Assembly: GCA_964372905.1 (NCBI GenBank)
Contig: CAYJQY010000002.1
Coordinates: 38,796-102,795, forward strand
DNA: 64,000 bases
From: an uncultured Candidatus Saccharibacteria bacterium
GTDB lineage: Bacteria > Patescibacteriota > Doudnabacteria > UBA920
Direction of reading: 5' to 3'
Shown: one piece after another, positions 56,679-62,460 of the stretch
Layout: each line of letters starts with the position of its first letter
How positions within the stretch are numbered: the stretch's first letter is position 1
The notes under the pieces: model-generated
What the model was told of the DNA's origin: nothing
Databases searched by the model: none
Seen by the model: only the letters and a program-made list of their open reading frames with translations
Position numbers and translations under genes: made by a program

Positions 56679-57413
56679 ATGACAACTTCCCCGGACCAAA
56701 AAATTGTGCAGTTGAACAATATTTCCGTGCATTACGACGGCGTCAAAGCAGTTGATGATGTGACGCTGGCGCTGGCTCGCGGCGAGGTCGTGGCTCTCAT
56801 GGGCCCTAATGGCGCCGGAAAGTCCACGATCTTAAAAGCCATTTTTGGCCTGACGCCCATTGACCGCGGCCAAATTTTCTTGCATGGCCAGCTAGTTACG
56901 CCGGTGCCGCACCAAGTCGTGCAGCAGGGCGTGTCGTTCGTGCCGCAGGGCCGCCGCGTGTTCACGCATCTGACTATTGATGAAAATCTGGATATGGGGG
57001 GCTTTGCGGTCAAAGATAAGCGCGCGCTGGCCCAGGCCAAACGCGAGATGCTGGAATTGTTTCCTGATTTGAAGCAAAAGCGCCGCGCCAAATCCGGAAC
57101 CTTGTCCGGCGGCCAGCAGCAAATGCTGGCTTTGGCGCGCGGCCTCATGACCCGGCCGCAAGTGCTGCTGCTCGATGAGCCGTCTTTAGGACTGGCGCCG
57201 AAAATCGTTAAAGAAATTTTTGTTAAGATTAGGGAGATCAATGAAATGTACGGCACAGCTATGATTATTGTCGAGCATAACATCAAATCGCTGCTGGAAA
57301 TTGTCAGCCGCGCCTACGTGCTCGACAAAGGAAAAATTCTCGCCGAAGGCGATGCCCAGAAGCTCAGCCACAGCGAAATCCTGGAAAAAATCTTCCTCGG
57401 AAAATTGGAATGA
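56679..57413 (+). CDS. livF: Branched-chain amino acid ABC transporter ATP-binding protein LivF
   Basis: Walker A GPNGAGKST, LSGGQQQMLALARGL, LLLDEPSLGLAP and a LivF-type C-terminus. Confidence 0.85.
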   Translation: MTTSPDQKIVQLNNISVHYDGVKAVDDVTLALARGEVVALMGPNGAGKSTILKAIFGLTPIDRGQIFLHGQLVTPVPHQVVQQGVSFVPQGRRVFTHLTIDENLDMGGFAVKDKRALAQAKREMLELFPDLKQKRRAKSGTLSGGQQQMLALARGLMTRPQVLLLDEPSLGLAPKIVKEIFVKIREINEMYGTAMIIVEHNIKSLLEIVSRAYVLDKGKILAEGDAQKLSHSEILEKIFLGKLE

Positions 57414-57514
57414 AGTTTTCCTAATACAATTATTGCTGCGCTTGTTCCATTCCCGCTGCGTGCGCTATAATAGATAAGTTAGCGCGTTTTTAGCTTTTGA
57501 TACCAACATCAAGC

Positions 57515-58273
57515 ATGTCAATTGACGGGATCGAACGAAAATATAAAATTATTGTAAAGACCATAAATTCTCACGCCCAGCGGCATCTGCCCCAGTTGCG
57601 CGCACCTTTGCGCTTGCCCGCGCCTCCCCGCGTGCGCCTGTTCAAGCCCATGCTCGCGGCCACTGTGCTGGTGATTGTGCTCATCGCGTCGTGGAGCGGC
57701 CTAACCGTGATGGCCAATCGTACGTTGTTGAGCGACGGTCGCCCCGATATCGATCTCACCAATTTTCCTGTTCCCGCCTCAAATGAGCTCATCGGCCCCA
57801 TTCCTCTCACTACCAATGAGCCGGACATGCGGGTGGTCGCGGAAACTTTTTTAAAGCTCCTGGCGCAGTATCGGGAAAATCATGTTAGCGTGGATGGCCT
57901 GGCAGAACGGATTGAGCAGTTGCGGCCTTATCTTGCCAGCAAAGGCTCCCCTTTGGCTCAAGACGACCAAGCCCTGCAAGCGCTGGCCTTGGCCAACAAC
58001 ACGCGCATGATCCTGGCCATCTCTTTTGTCGAAAGTAATTTTTGCCGCCGGCACCTTGCTTTTAATTGCAGCGGTATCGGCGGCGCGACTTACTTCCGCC
58101 ATTACAGAGGTTTTCAGAACTGGGTTTTGGATTTTGACCGCCTGCTCGACCGCCGCTACGGCGGACTCGACGTCGAAGAAATGAATTGCTATTACGTCCA
58201 GCCCTGCAACGCCCGCTGGGTCAATGGAGTTTATCAGATCCTGACCGAACTTAAAGCCCGCGGCATAAGTTAA
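57515..58273 (+). CDS. Membrane-anchored hypothetical protein, possibly glucosaminidase-like peptidoglycan hydrolase domain
   Basis: One TM (MLAATVLVIVLIASW). The C-terminal region ILAISFVESNFCRRHLAFNCSGIGG resembles the glucosaminidase/FlgJ-type core. The start is ambiguous (TTG 57497 or ATG 57515). Confidence 0.35.
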   Translation: MSIDGIERKYKIIVKTINSHAQRHLPQLRAPLRLPAPPRVRLFKPMLAATVLVIVLIASWSGLTVMANRTLLSDGRPDIDLTNFPVPASNELIGPIPLTTNEPDMRVVAETFLKLLAQYRENHVSVDGLAERIEQLRPYLASKGSPLAQDDQALQALALANNTRMILAISFVESNFCRRHLAFNCSGIGGATYFRHYRGFQNWVLDFDRLLDRRYGGLDVEEMNCYYVQPCNARWVNGVYQILTELKARGIS

Positions 58274-58344
58274 TCAAGTATTATCTAAAAATCAGCTGCT
58301 CCGTCCATTTGGTTAGGGGTGTTTTAAGTTTGATAGGCTGCAAT

Positions 58345-58403
58345 TTGACAAGCTGACAACATCCGGATTATACTGGTTTTATACACCCCCCACCCCGGGG
58401 TAT
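58345..58403 (+). promoter_or_regulatory. Promoter plus CsoR-type operator palindrome
   Basis: TTGACA-18 nt-TATACT, followed immediately by ATACACCCCCCACCCCGGGGTAT (58381-58403). This is a GC-tract inverted repeat of the type bound by CsoR/RcnR-family repressors. Confidence 0.55.
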
Positions 58404-58448
58404 GAATTTACAGCGATGAAAGAGAGATGAAAGAGAAGTGAAAGAGCG

Positions 58449-58724
58449 ATGAAAATCACCCAAACTCACAAGCAGACCATAATAAATCGCCTCCACTACA
58501 CTGAAGGCCATGTTAGGGCTGTGGCCAAAATGGTGGCAAACGATGCATATTGTATGGATATAATTAACCAAAGCCACGCCGTCATCGAAGCGTTAAAAAA
58601 AATTAATCAGATGATTTTGTCCGGCTATTTGGGCGAGTGCGCCTGGGACGCGGTCAACAGCAAAAATTTCGCCAAGCGCAAAAAAGCCATCCATGAGCTG
58701 GTAACTTTGTATAGTAAAAAATAA
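58449..58724 (+). CDS. CsoR/RcnR-family metal- or thiol-sensing transcriptional repressor
   Basis: 91 aa with DUF156-type helices. The sensing positions are Tyr34-Cys35, Tyr60 (not His) and Cys64. Confidence 0.75.
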   Translation: MKITQTHKQTIINRLHYTEGHVRAVAKMVANDAYCMDIINQSHAVIEALKKINQMILSGYLGECAWDAVNSKNFAKRKKAIHELVTLYSKK

Positions 58725-58771
58725 TTTGTGATGATAGTCGCCGGGCCGGATTGCCGCGCAATTTGAACATT

Positions 58772-59707
58772 ATGAACGATAAAATTTATAATACCATAAT
58801 AATAGGCTCCGGCCCGGCCGGACTGACCGCGGCGCTTTACGCGGCCCGCGCCGAACTGGCGCCTCTAGTAATCGCCGGGCTGACTCCGGGCGGCCAGCTC
58901 ATGCTAACCTCGGACGTGGAAAATTATCCCGGCTTTCCCGAAGGCATTCTGGGGCCCGAGCTCATGGACAAGATGATCAAGCAGATCGAGCGGTTCGGCG
59001 CGGAAATCATCAATGAAAATGTTACGGCCGTGGATTTTTCCCAGCGGCCGTTTTCCGTGCGCACGGACAAAGCCGAATTCAAAACCAAAACCGTGATCAT
59101 CGCCACCGGCGCCGAGGCCAACTGGCTCAATCTGCCCAATGAACAGCGCTTGCGCGGTCACGGCGTATCGGCCTGCGCGAGTTGCGACGGATTTTTTTTC
59201 AAGGGCAAGGCCGTGGTGGTTATCGGCGGGGGAGACAGCGCCATGGAGGAAGCCACGTTCCTCACCAAATTCGCCAAGACGGTTACCATATTGCACCGCC
59301 GCGCCGAATTTCGCGCTTCTAAAATTATGTTAAAGCGCGCCCAGGACAATCCGAAAATTAAGTTTATGACCAATGTGGAGGTAGTGGATGTGCTCGGCCA
59401 GGATTCTGTCGCGGGTGTGCGCATTAAGCACAGTGATACCGGAGCGGAAGAGGAAATTGCGGCGCAGGGATATTTTGCCGCCATCGGCCATACGCCATCC
59501 ACGAAGATTTTTCAAAATTCGGGATTGGAATTAGACCAAAAAGGCTACCTTGTGGTTAAGGCCCATACCCATACCAACATTGAGGGCGTTTTCGTGGCCG
59601 GCGATGTCAACGACCACCGCTACCGCCAGGCCGTAACCGCTGCGGGTATGGGCTGTATGGCTGCCATGGATGCGGAAAAATATCTGACGGAGGGCGAGGC
59701 AAAATAG
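58772..59707 (+). CDS. trxB: Thioredoxin-disulfide reductase
   Basis: FAD site IIIGSGPAGLTAALYAAR, redox-active CASCDG and NADPH site VIGGGDSAMEEA. Start at MNDKIYN. Confidence 0.9.
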   Translation: MNDKIYNTIIIGSGPAGLTAALYAARAELAPLVIAGLTPGGQLMLTSDVENYPGFPEGILGPELMDKMIKQIERFGAEIINENVTAVDFSQRPFSVRTDKAEFKTKTVIIATGAEANWLNLPNEQRLRGHGVSACASCDGFFFKGKAVVVIGGGDSAMEEATFLTKFAKTVTILHRRAEFRASKIMLKRAQDNPKIKFMTNVEVVDVLGQDSVAGVRIKHSDTGAEEEIAAQGYFAAIGHTPSTKIFQNSGLELDQKGYLVVKAHTHTNIEGVFVAGDVNDHRYRQAVTAAGMGCMAAMDAEKYLTEGEAK

Positions 59708-59733
59708 TATGGCGCGGTTATAATATTTAGTCA

Positions 59734-60207
59734 ATGGCAATAATAATTTCCGGGCGCGTTTTGCGCGGCCGGCGGTATGGGGAAAAGTTGGGCTTCCCTA
59801 CAGCCAATCTTGATCGGCGCCAGTTTGCAAGATTAAAAGTCAAACCAAAACTTGGCGTATATGCCGGCGTCGTACAAATTGCACAAATAAAAAATTCTTT
59901 AAAAAAATATAAAACCGGCAGCTATAAAACCGGCAGCTATAAAGCCGGGATTGTTATTGGCCCAATGGACCGCCTCGGCCTGCCAAAACTGGAAGCGCAT
60001 CTCATTGGCTTTAGCGGCAGTCTTTACGGGCGCCATTTAACCATTCGGTTAACCAATTACCTCCGGCCGTTTCGGAAATATTCCGGCGAATCGGCCCTCA
60101 AGGCCCAGATCAAGAAAGATATAAGCAAAGTTAAAAGACTTGTTGTTTTGACTCGGCGATTAACATCTTCTTTAAAAATGAGCCGGGAAGCCGCAATAAA
60201 TAATTAA
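59734..60207 (+). CDS. Riboflavin kinase domain protein (monofunctional RibF C-terminal-domain-like) with tandem KTGSY insert
   Basis: GRVLRGRRYGEKLGFPTANL, GVYAGVV, EAHLIGFSGSLYGRHLTIRL. An in-frame tandem 15-bp DNA repeat at 59912-59941 encodes KTGSYKTGSYKAG. Confidence 0.6.
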   Translation: MAIIISGRVLRGRRYGEKLGFPTANLDRRQFARLKVKPKLGVYAGVVQIAQIKNSLKKYKTGSYKTGSYKAGIVIGPMDRLGLPKLEAHLIGFSGSLYGRHLTIRLTNYLRPFRKYSGESALKAQIKKDISKVKRLVVLTRRLTSSLKMSREAAINN

Positions 60208-60228
60208 TTAGAAAATTATAAAGAAAAT

Positions 60229-61158
60229 ATGAAGCTACAAAAATACGGCACCTATCTCATTTTTCTCGCGGCCATGCTCTGGGCCACGGACGCGCCATTC
60301 CGGGTACATCTTACCCAGAATCTACCCAGTAGCCTTATCGTTCTCATAGAACATTTCATAGATGTTTTGTTTATCATTCCTTTTGCCGGCCTTATCATTC
60401 GCGATGCCAAAAAGCTTTCCGGTAAGGGCTGGCTGGCCGTTTTAGTTATTGCGGTCGGCGGCTCCGCTTTGGCCAGTTTTGCCTTCACCAAAGCGTTTAC
60501 ATTTGTAAATCCATCAATTGCGATTTTACTGCAAAAACTTCAGCCTCTGATTGCCATTTCGTTGGCCGCGGGCCTACTCAAAGAGCGGTTCAACAAAAAT
60601 TTTTGGCTCTGGACTACGGTGGCTTTGTTCGGAGCCTATTTGATTTCCTTTTCCGGTTTGGCGCCGCGCTTATTCATCGGCGAGCAGTTTAATCCTAATG
60701 TTGTTGGCGTTGGGCTCGCGCTACTCGCCGCCGTATTCTGGGGCGCGTCCACGGTCATGGGCAAACTGGCCTTGCGCGAAGTCGGTTTTAAGGCCATGAC
60801 CGGCTTGCGCTTCGGCCTGGCTTTCATCTTTTTATTAATCTGGAACGCGTCCAGCGGCACCTTGGGCCGCATCACTTCAATTAGTTCTAAAGATTTGCTG
60901 TTCTTGTTGATCATTGCCGTAACCTCGGGCGTGGTGTCGCTGTTCATCTACTATAAAGGATTGCAGTACACCAAAGCCTCCGTGGCTACGCTGGCCGAAT
61001 TGGGTTTTCCGCTGGCCGCCGTGGTCGTGAACTATTTCTTTCTTGATGCCGTTTTGACCCCCATTCAACTGGCCGGCATGGCCATTTTGCTCTTTTCAAT
61101 TTTTCAATTAAATCGCGTCAACAGCCGGGAAATAGCCCCGGCCCCAGCATCACCATAA
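60229..61158 (+). CDS. EamA/DMT-family transporter
   Basis: 10 TM helices in two EamA-like halves. 309 aa. Confidence 0.75.
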   Translation: MKLQKYGTYLIFLAAMLWATDAPFRVHLTQNLPSSLIVLIEHFIDVLFIIPFAGLIIRDAKKLSGKGWLAVLVIAVGGSALASFAFTKAFTFVNPSIAILLQKLQPLIAISLAAGLLKERFNKNFWLWTTVALFGAYLISFSGLAPRLFIGEQFNPNVVGVGLALLAAVFWGASTVMGKLALREVGFKAMTGLRFGLAFIFLLIWNASSGTLGRITSISSKDLLFLLIIAVTSGVVSLFIYYKGLQYTKASVATLAELGFPLAAVVVNYFFLDAVLTPIQLAGMAILLFSIFQLNRVNSREIAPAPASP

Positions 61159-61176
61159 ATAATTTAACAAAAATTT

Positions 61177-62460
61177 ATGGTAATCAATCCATTTGAAACA
61201 GCCAAGCACCAGCTTGATGAGGCGGCCAAAGCCGCTAAGCTCGATCCGGATATGGTCGAGCGGCTCAAAAACCCGGACCGCTACGTGGAGGTCAACATCC
61301 CGGTCATCATGGATAATGGTGAGCAGAAAATTTTTACCGGGTTCCGCAGCCAGCACAACAACGCGCGCGGGCCGTACAAAGGCGGCATCCGTTATCACCA
61401 GCAGGTCAGTTTGGACGAAGTGCGCGCTCTTTCGTTTTGGATGACGTTCAAAAACGCCGTGGTTGATGTGCCGTTTGGGGGCAGCAAGGGCGGGATCATT
61501 TTTAATCCCAAGGAAGTTTCGGAAGGCGAACTGGAAAAAATTTCCCGCGGCTATGTTCAAAAATTGTATCGGCTGTTCGGTCCGGAATTTGACGTGCCCG
61601 CGCCAGATGTGAACACTGGCGGCCGGATCATGTCCTGGATGCTGGATGAATATGAAAAGTTGATTGGCGCCAAAGCGCCGGCGACTTTTACCGGCAAGCC
61701 GGTGGACAACGGCGGCAGCGAGGGCCGCACCGAAGCCACGGGTTTTGGCGGCGCTTACGTTTTGCGCGAAGTCCTGAAAGATAAAATTGTTGACATTGCA
61801 GACGACCGGGCTGGCACAACAGGCAATTCCGACGGCACAGGCCATGGAAATCCTGCCCCCACCGTGGCCATCCAGGGCTTCGGCAACGTCGCCACCTATT
61901 TTGCCCAGTCCGCAAGCGATTTAGGATTGAAAATCGTGGCCATGTCCGACAGCAAAGGCGGCATTTATAATTCTGAAGGTTTAGACATTCCTAAACTCAA
62001 GGAGCATAAAAAATCCACGGGTGCGCTCAAAGATTTTCCCGGCGCAAAAAACATCTCCAATGAAGAATTATTGAAGCTCGATGTTCACATTTTGGTTCCG
62101 GCCGCGCTCGAAAATGTGCTTACCGGCGATAACGCAGACAAAATCAAAGCCCAACTCATTGTTGAAATGGCCAATGGCCCCACCAGCACAGAAGCCGACG
62201 AAATCTTTGCCAAAAAGCGGATTGTGGTTGTCCCGGATATTCTCGCTAATAGCGGCGGCGTCTGTACCAGCTATTTTGAATGGTACCAGAATATGCACAA
62301 TGAGCACTGGTCTAAGGGCGATGTGCTCAAAAAACTCGATGCGCAAATGGTGCGCGCTTGGCAGGGCGTGCGCGACATGCAAAAAAAATATAACACCACG
62401 TTCCGCAACGCAGCGTATATTGTGGCCGCCGAGCGCATTATTGCGGCGATGAAGGAGTAG
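61177..62460 (+). CDS. gdhA: Glutamate dehydrogenase (NAD(P)-dependent)
   Basis: Catalytic KGGIRYH and GGSKGGI, plus a Rossmann GFGNVATYFA. 427 aa. Confidence 0.9.
   Translation: MVINPFETAKHQLDEAAKAAKLDPDMVERLKNPDRYVEVNIPVIMDNGEQKIFTGFRSQHNNARGPYKGGIRYHQQVSLDEVRALSFWMTFKNAVVDVPFGGSKGGIIFNPKEVSEGELEKISRGYVQKLYRLFGPEFDVPAPDVNTGGRIMSWMLDEYEKLIGAKAPATFTGKPVDNGGSEGRTEATGFGGAYVLREVLKDKIVDIADDRAGTTGNSDGTGHGNPAPTVAIQGFGNVATYFAQSASDLGLKIVAMSDSKGGIYNSEGLDIPKLKEHKKSTGALKDFPGAKNISNEELLKLDVHILVPAALENVLTGDNADKIKAQLIVEMANGPTSTEADEIFAKKRIVVVPDILANSGGVCTSYFEWYQNMHNEHWSKGDVLKKLDAQMVRAWQGVRDMQKKYNTTFRNAAYIVAAERIIAAMKE

Follow-up and report, generated by a model that had tools for sequence, protein, structure and literature searches.

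The DNA analysed here, hereafter called the window, is a stretch of 64 kb from the genome of an uncultured member of the Patescibacteria, and all coordinates are positions in this window. The locus under study is centred on a gene for a CsoR/RcnR-family repressor of 91 residues (the csoR-like gene). It is preceded by a promoter, an operator-type palindrome and a leader with an 11-bp tandem repeat, and is followed by trxB, a flavokinase gene, a gene for an EamA-family transporter and gdh, in this order (Table 1). The repressor matches PF02583 over residues 8-87 of 91 with a score of 73.5 bits (cut-off 22.8), and the start codon at 58449 is the sole in-frame start of its gene, with an in-frame TGA at 58428. 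TTGACA-18-TATACT is the best promoter-like site in a scan of positions 57400-61300. Its TTGACA is invariant in an alignment with the nearest relatives and is also present in most homologue loci. The spacer measures 18 nt, as against 17 nt in close relatives, among them L047 and L087 (related loci are designated by L numbers). The promoter scan found no second promoter within the leader, where the -10 box of the sole candidate, TTTATA-17-TATGAA, is without its final T. Transcription is predicted to start near 58381, about 7 nt past the -10 box. No terminator-like site was seen on the + strand between the csoR-like gene and trxB, and the two genes are probably co-transcribed. An earlier note on this DNA, made from the sequence alone, had reported the same promoter and had listed trxB, a riboflavin-kinase-like gene and EamA after csoR; the promoter is present at the positions given there, and the genes are confirmed by profile matches.

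Table 1. Coordinates of the features at the csoR-like/trxB locus (ORF, open reading frame).
Feature	Position	Strand	Remarks
-35 hexamer TTGACA	58345..58350	+	11/12 consensus positions jointly with the -10 box
-10 hexamer TATACT	58369..58374	+	18-nt spacer from -35; TATAnT box also in relatives
Type-2 CsoR-family operator ATACACCCCCCACCCCGGGGTAT	58381..58403	.	15-nt core 58386-58400; overlaps predicted transcription start
Mini-ORF 0, MNLQR*	58402..58419	+	begins in operator flank (GGGGTATGA); TGA overlaps ATG 58416
11-bp tandem repeat, four copies of start region -5..+6: CAGCGATGAAA, GAGAGATGAAA, GAGAAGTGAAA, GAGCGATGAAA	58411..58454	+	
Mini-ORF 1, MKER*	58416..58430	+	verified by translation
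Mini-ORF 2, MKEK*	58427..58441	+	verified by translation; ATG aligned with ACG in L087
Mini-ORF 3, VKER*	58438..58452	+	TGA overlaps csoR-like ATG 58449; GTG aligned with CTG in L087
CsoR/RcnR-family repressor gene, 91 aa, fingerprint x-C35-Y60-C64	58449..58724	+	PF02583, E = 1.8e-20
trxB, thioredoxin-disulfide reductase	58772..59707	+	TIGR01292, 403.8 bits (cut-off 343)
Riboflavin-kinase-domain (Flavokinase) ORF, 157 aa	59734..60207	+	PF01687, E = 3.5e-25
EamA-family membrane transporter, 309 aa	60229..61158	+	PF00892, E = 1.1e-38

A protein search reveals 125 homologues of the repressor, nearly all from Patescibacteria metagenome-assembled genomes labelled Doudnabacteria, 'Saccharibacteria' or Patescibacteria group. 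About 90 loci were retrieved, and approximately 65 related Patescibacteria loci were compared for gene context. An identical repressor protein is encoded on two other assemblies (ERR4904391 and ERR3478686), with leaders that are identical base for base; none of the 125 homologues has an identity between 86% and 100%. In nearly every Patescibacteria locus with enough downstream sequence, trxB lies directly 3' of the csoR-like gene, sometimes only a few nucleotides after its stop codon. The distant homologues from other phyla, with identities of at most 49%, are without a downstream trxB. Since the promoter, the operator at the transcription start and the downstream trxB are conserved almost everywhere, the comparison supports a clade-wide csoR-like/trxB operon in the Patescibacteria that is predicted to be autoregulated.

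The palindrome ATACACCCCCCACCCCGGGGTAT begins seven bases past TATACT and is the single occurrence of ACCCC-N7-GGGGT in the window; no further copy of the operator, as would be expected for a regulon, was found within the window. Scanning 68 Patescibacteria homologue loci with the pattern C5-8/N2-5/G5-9, at most 160 nt from the start codon, identifies 59 loci with a site of the A-C6-N3-G6-TA type in the interval from the -10 box to the start codon. The core is exactly 15 nt long in 54 of these 59, with C6-N3-G6 as the commonest form, and is flanked by A on its left side and by TA on its right. Four more loci contain a C-tract/G-tract site 200-330 nt upstream of the csoR-like gene, and in 592 kb no site of this type was found away from the upstream region of a csoR-like gene. 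The operator of the homologues has its left end 2-11 nt past the -10 box, mostly 9 nt (11 nt in the window), and its position corresponds to about +4 to +20 relative to the expected transcription start.

The type-2 architecture of CsoR operators has been described, with ATATACCCCTNAGGGGTATAT as the Streptomyces consensus, and a G/C-tract pseudopalindrome at the regulated promoter, as observed here, belongs to the definition of CsoR/RcnR operators (PMC3902906). Like the sites of Cu-CsoR proteins, the operator consists of a C-tract, a 3-nt spacer and a G-tract with TA-rich flanks at the repressor's own promoter (PMC3902906). However, the tracts of the clade are longer (6+6) than those of the Streptomyces consensus sites, and the right arm of the window operator is imperfect. 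Relative to the clade consensus AGACCCCCCATAGGGGGGTAT, two inner G's of this arm are replaced by C's in the window counterpart ACACCCCCCACCCCGGGGTAT, which makes it the most deviant copy, with a G-tract of 4 G compared with at least 5 G in all others. The equivalents in 59 of 68 loci and the agreement with the published architecture bear out the assignment of the G/C-tract palindrome to the CsoR-type operators in the earlier note. We infer that the C6-N3-G6 site is bound by the 91-residue repressor, and the type-2 architecture together with the position at about +4 to +20 suggests that the repressor blocks its own promoter.

The -35 box of the csoR-like promoter forms a palindrome of its own, TTGACA-NN-TGTCAA, in L047 (~600-660), L087 (~490-545), L093 (~745-795) and most other homologue loci. 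At a distance of 17 nt from this palindrome, the opposite strand carries a TATACT box, resulting in a symmetrical divergent promoter pair with a common -35 region. A minus-strand ORF of 89-91 residues lies upstream of the csoR-like promoter in L087, L093 and L094, and a similar 89-residue ORF, further upstream in L090, encodes a GIY-YIG protein. The window contains neither the -35 palindrome (TTGACAAGCTGACAA) nor a divergent gene, both having been lost. On the 5' side of its promoter lies an ORF of 258 residues (57497-58273) without a Pfam or NCBIfam match, homologues of which, at 30-58% identity, adjoin upstream in many related loci.

The repressor can be aligned without gaps to the CsoR proteins of Mycobacterium tuberculosis, Geobacillus and Streptomyces lividans and to InrS (2hh7, 4m1p, 4adz and 5fmn). 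Residues C35, Y60 and C64 align with C36, H61 and C65 of M. tuberculosis CsoR, i.e., with the X, Y and Z positions of the W-X-Y-Z fingerprint, such that Tyr60 occupies the position of the His in Cu-CsoR and the fingerprint reads x-C-Y-C. Residues Y34 and E83 align with the second-shell residues Tyr35 and Glu81 of the M. tuberculosis protein, and C35, C64, Y34 and E83 are all invariant in a 37-sequence alignment of the clade. The N-terminus, MKITQTH in the window protein, has no conserved His, Cys or Pro in the clade alignment. The earlier note had named Y34-C35, Y60 and C64, with Tyr replacing His, and had proposed an alignment with characterised family members; the gapless alignments confirm these residues.

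Tyr is found at position 60 in 99 of 120 clade members. Positions 60 and 63 (58626-58637 in the window; homologues P0001-P0120) co-vary, with only three mixed cases: Tyr60 occurs with Glu63 in 98 sequences and His60 with Val, Ile, Ser or Ala at position 63 in 19, while His60 with Glu63 is present once and the remaining two sequences have Y/V and E/V. Tyr60/Glu63 and His60/hydrophobic63 thus represent a natural variant pair for comparison.

In the W-X-Y-Z scheme, the x-C-H-C fingerprint marks Cu(I) sensors encoded beside copA/copZ, and x-C-x-C marks persulfide sensors encoded beside sulfide-detoxification genes (PMC8643695). The window repressor resembles the Cu-CsoR proteins of M. tuberculosis, Bacillus subtilis and S. 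lividans as a PF02583 protein of ~90 residues that aligns to the solved structures without gaps, with Cys at X and Z and with the second-shell Tyr (Y34) and Glu (E83) retained, and its gene is likewise first in an operon with predicted autoregulation. Unlike these proteins, it has Tyr in place of the Cu ligand His61, as do most members of the clade, and its predicted target is trxB, not copZ or copA. Neither copA nor copZ is found in the neighbourhood, and a motif search of the window detected neither DKTGT (P-type ATPase) nor GMTCxxC (HMA/metallochaperone).

The presence of Cys at X and Z without a metal-ligand His at Y is instead a feature shared with CstR from Staphylococcus aureus, Enterococcus faecalis and Streptococcus pneumoniae, which has an x-C-x-C fingerprint with two Cys and no His at Y (PMC8643695); this likeness fails for the 17% of the clade with His60. 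As for CstR, in which persulfides cross-link the two Cys and DNA binding is lost, a thiol-based, non-metal signal would be expected for the window protein. In contrast to CstR loci, the window locus has no genes for a sulfurtransferase, a persulfide dioxygenase or SQR nearby but contains trxB instead, and no sulfide/persulfide detoxification genes were found in the window operon or in the ~65 related loci, where trxB is the constant neighbour. The similarity to the solved SpCstR (E = 5.8e-7) is weaker than that to the Cu-CsoR proteins (~1e-9), and the Y position is Tyr or His in the clade, compared with Asn in CstR. Two other assignments find no match in the residues. RcnR and InrS have His at W and Y, whereas the window protein has Tyr at Y and no conserved N-terminal His. 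FrmR has Pro2 beside Cys35, whereas residue 2 is Lys in the window protein and Pro is not conserved at this position in the clade; the NCBIfam FrmR score is 23.7 bits, compared with a cut-off of 133.

Since the x-C-x-C fingerprint is combined with neither of the two published neighbourhoods and trxB is the constant partner, the effector is most likely not Cu(I) but a thiol oxidation signal (disulfide, peroxide or persulfide), as judged from residues and synteny. The fingerprint alone is insufficient to settle the effector, given the presence of His60 in 20 of 120 relatives. The non-copper effector proposed in the earlier note is therefore favoured by the trxB linkage and the lack of cop motifs, with the His60-bearing relatives as a reservation; the label CstR-like given there agrees with the fingerprint but not with the lack of sulfide-detoxification genes. 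According to a 2024 review, no H2O2-specific sensor of the CsoR family has been characterised (PMC11672702), and nothing in the searchable literature was found to link CsoR proteins to trxB or CsoR to the Patescibacteria. The main interest of the locus lies in this clade as a candidate group of redox-sensing CsoR proteins, a concrete candidate for an oxidant sensor of the CsoR family with the operator sequence at hand.

Elsewhere, thioredoxin reductase is controlled by other thiol switches, including RsrA/SigR acting on trxBA in Streptomyces, Spx acting on trxB in Bacillus, and the OxyR regulon. The logic proposed for the present locus is comparable, in that oxidation of a Cys pair in the regulator would switch on trxB, after which the regulator would be reduced again. 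However, those regulators belong to unrelated protein families, whereas the present one is a CsoR-family repressor. The module of a Cys/Tyr/Cys repressor, a C6-N3-G6 operator and trxB is well conserved in the Patescibacteria, in which gene regulation is almost unexplored. The flavokinase and EamA genes form an optional cassette between trxB and gdh, as usually both are present or both are absent across the relatives. This pairing suggests a linked function, possibly the uptake and phosphorylation of flavin for the flavoenzyme thioredoxin reductase, in which the role of flavin importer is only a guess.

The leader of the window gene contains four tandem copies of the region around the start codon of the csoR-like gene. 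Tandem Repeats Finder reports a repeat at 58415-58454 with a period of 11, 3.6 copies, 82% matches and a score of 59, the second strongest in the window, and the self-match of the leader is 0.63 at lag 11, compared with 0.2-0.44 at other lags. The strongest tandem repeat of the window is an in-frame 15-bp repeat at 59908-59948 in the riboflavin-kinase-domain ORF (2.7 copies, 96% matches), which encodes YKTGS-YKTGS-YKAG. The 11-bp repeat and the chain of MKER, MKEK and VKER had been described in the earlier note and are found at the coordinates in Table 1, together with a fourth mini-ORF, MNLQR, that had been missed. The mini-ORFs and the csoR-like gene are connected by four successive stop/start overlaps of the ATGA type (58416-58419, 58427-58430, 58438-58441 and 58449-58452), i.e., by 4-nt overlaps between co-directional ORFs. 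Such overlaps are an established route of termination-reinitiation and the commonest overlap type of prokaryotic gene pairs (PMC6728339). As in the known cases, the TGA of each mini-ORF shares its TG with the next start (PMC6728339), but the known cases join two real genes, whereas here unconserved ORFs of 4-5 codons, derived from a repeat, are chained in a 5' leader, with their translation inferred only. The window contains a single match to RTGA-N7-RTGA-N7-RTGA-N7-ATGA, and none of 100 shuffles has one. The overlap chain is no independent evidence of function, however, because any tandem 11-nt unit beginning with RTGA yields 4-codon ORFs.

A Shine-Dalgarno core (a 4-mer at -20 to -4) is present in only 2 of 36 window genes, which is fewer than random 17-mers give, and the regions upstream of these 36 gene starts contain 71% A+T, compared with a GC content of 50% for the genome. 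Because the window genes hardly use Shine-Dalgarno sites, the choice of the start codon must depend on open, A-rich leaders. The leader of the csoR-like gene has a minimum free energy of -11.3 kcal/mol (z = -0.69 relative to shuffles) and folds no better than shuffled sequences. Given the scarcity of Shine-Dalgarno sites and an unstructured, A/G-rich leader, ribosomes probably use the upstream AUG and GUG codons, provided that the transcript begins near 58381. A TATAAT-like box lies at most 45 nt from the ATG in ten window genes, and at most 10 nt in five of these, which suggests short leaders or none. No Rfam family was found in the leader: a gathering scan covering the window and a permissive one covering 58250-58800 yielded nothing beyond snoRNA hits at chance level. 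Neither alternative RNA structures nor a known leader family, as expected for a leader peptide, are therefore apparent.

Comparison with the relatives shows that the 11-bp array is restricted to the window strain, in which it is identical in three assemblies, and is absent from about 65 other loci. In the Patescibacteria loci the operator and the start codon are usually 12-25 nt apart, and an upstream ATG is missing from most leaders. Relatives with a protein identity of 76-79% have leaders of 12-15 nt without the repeat (L047, tatggcaaaacc; L088, taggaccagaaaact; L093, tagttctcaccatt). The closest relative, L087, shares 86% protein identity with the window gene; the coding DNA is 80% identical, and third codon positions are 59% identical. 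Its leader has nearly the same length (49 nt vs 48 nt in the window) but shows no 11-nt periodicity, with a lag-11 self-match of 0.33 vs 0.63. The 20 nt adjoining the L087 start codon are 85% identical to the second and third repeat units of the window, and at the positions of the window's ATG 58427 and GTG 58438 L087 reads ACG and CTG. What the window and L087 have in common is thus a purine-rich tract, not start codons. Either an ancestral array may have decayed in L087, or the array may have been built later in the window lineage. The upstream ORFs are not conserved in the orthologous leaders, as would be expected for a leader peptide, and outside the same strain the chain is absent.

The data are best explained by a lineage-specific duplication of the start region, with the mini-ORF cascade as a geometric by-product, to which we assign a probability of roughly 0.6. 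ATGAAA is a common start context in the relatives, and the repeat unit matches the start context of the gene itself, which points to a tandem duplication of the start region. The duplication had been offered as an alternative in the earlier note and, the repeat being lineage-specific, fits better than the regulatory leader device proposed there. That device is not borne out, since the cascade is absent elsewhere, its starts are replaced by ACG and CTG in L087, and the leader is unstructured and without an Rfam match. In the comparison of repeat number across relatives that the earlier note proposed, the homologues are without the repeat, and the three same-strain assemblies are identical. The repeat is a clean natural case in which overlapping mini-ORFs became chained through the duplication of a start site, and is so far a curiosity of a single lineage.

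In the proposed mechanism, a sigma-70-type promoter (58345-58374) would fire at about the left edge of the operator (58381-58403). The repressor, bound to the C-tract/G-tract inverted repeat, would block its own gene, trxB, and probably the flavokinase and EamA genes. The sensing site would be formed by the Cys35/Cys64' pair, with Tyr60 in place of His, and oxidation of its thiols would lead to derepression and thus to more thioredoxin reductase. The thioredoxin system would then re-reduce and reset the sensor, providing feedback. In the leader, the four tandem copies (5 nt + ATG + AAA) may have arisen in the window lineage or in a recent ancestor. Each RTGA-led 11-nt copy begins an ORF of four codons, the TGA of which overlaps the start that follows, and the ATGA/GTGA overlaps could allow ribosomes to re-initiate stepwise down to the true ATG, which would make the duplication tolerable instead of harmful.

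Several observations weigh against this interpretation. Twenty of the 120 relatives combine x-C-H-C with the Tyr and Glu, i.e., the full Cu-CsoR signature, in the same gene neighbourhood, and this His-bearing minority leaves some probability of copper sensing in the clade. The window operator is weakened by its G-tract of 4, and repression may differ from that in the relatives. The 3' 20 nt of the leader are 85% identical between the window and L087, compared with 59% for third positions, and part of the purine-rich leader is thus old and possibly constrained, contrary to the expectation from a purely neutral model. In addition, all three upstream starts of the repeat are kept and are preceded by the non-repeat, in-register mini-ORF MNLQR; selection for a ribosome relay could explain both.

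The similarity of the 3' part of the leaders could also reflect a purine-rich translation enhancer or standby site, in which the repeated GAAAGAG tract would prevent pairing within the leader and attract 30S subunits ahead of the true start, via S1 or weak anti-Shine-Dalgarno pairing. Such a function would account for a purine-rich stretch of 20 nt next to the start that is conserved between the window and L087 while its start codons are not, and it is compatible with the unstructured leader and with the GAAAGGA that follows just past the operator in many relatives. However, the identity of 85% comprises 20 positions in one pair of genomes, the window genes show no preference for Shine-Dalgarno sequences or purine tracts in their A/T-rich upstream regions, and leaders of 12-15 nt without such a tract suffice in the relatives at 76-79% identity. 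We consider an enhancer unlikely, although it fares better than the other alternatives.

If the leader acted as a ribosome relay or throttle, its chain of four mini-ORFs would itself be under selection, with ribosomes entering at any upstream start and being handed over at AUGA/GUGA, so as to fix the ratio of repressor to TrxB produced from a single mRNA or to alter it under certain conditions. All four stop/start overlaps are intact, including that of MNLQR, which does not belong to the repeat, and the sole substitution at a start position, from ATG to GTG, still yields a start codon. ATGA coupling is an established mechanism (PMC6728339), and in a genome without Shine-Dalgarno use the AUGs of an open, A-rich leader should serve. 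On the other hand, the array is missing from about 65 homologous loci, non-start codons occupy the aligned positions in L087, the chain follows automatically from the geometry of the repeat, and the mini-ORF peptides have no distinctive sequence. The repeat copies differ by only about four substitutions, too few to test constraint or to have the power to show selection. A single 4-codon upstream ORF that ends on the main start is present in L006, L047 and L069, but three such loci among ~16 leaders with an ATG in the operator flank are near chance level by a rough, uncomputed estimate, and conserved coupling by upstream ORFs was rejected on this basis. Altogether, a relay appears quite improbable; if it did operate in this bacterium, which does not use Shine-Dalgarno sites, it would represent a type of leader made of chained minimal ORFs, with neither an arrest peptide nor RNA structure as its basis. 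Finally, a DNA-level element, in which the 11-bp-spaced direct repeats bind a second regulator (e.g., a winged-helix response regulator) or phased A-tracts bend the DNA, would agree with the period near one helical turn, with the fourfold recurrence of TGAAAGAG-N3 and with a location, roughly +30 to +75 relative to the predicted start, where a roadblock could act, but is highly improbable, as the motif has no further occurrence in the window to suggest a regulon, is unconserved in all relatives, has A-runs of only 3 nt, and corresponds exactly to the start region of the gene itself, a match that indicates duplication and not an acquired binding site.

Two further ideas about the repeat were considered and rejected. 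A phase-variable simple-sequence repeat does not agree with units that are only 82% alike and with a copy number and sequence that are the same in three independent assemblies. Tandem repeats are also not a specific feature of these leaders: many homologue leaders contain short tandem repeats, mostly of 7 bp, but the 1.1 per kb for arrays of at least 3 copies does not clearly exceed the 0.68 per kb in other intergenic DNA of the same loci. Heptanucleotide tandem repeats of varied sequence, with 3-17 copies, are found in the intergenic DNA of L013, L014, L016, L018, L019, L023, L039, L059, L061 and L062, while Tandem Repeats Finder detects no repeats with a 7-bp period in the window.

A different conserved element of ~95 nt, with a long hairpin-like fold, is present in L012 (3865-3965), L021 (2951-3045), L066 (1460-1558), L050 (170-273, minus strand) and L018 (6864-6967). 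It is located within the csoR-like leader in L012 and L021 and at other intergenic positions elsewhere. Comparison of L012 with L021 shows that four of its base pairs are kept via changes on both sides. No Rfam match was found for this element, which looks like either a dispersed structured repeat, similar to miniature inverted-repeat transposable elements (MITE) or repetitive extragenic palindromes (REP), or an RNA motif that is new to Rfam.

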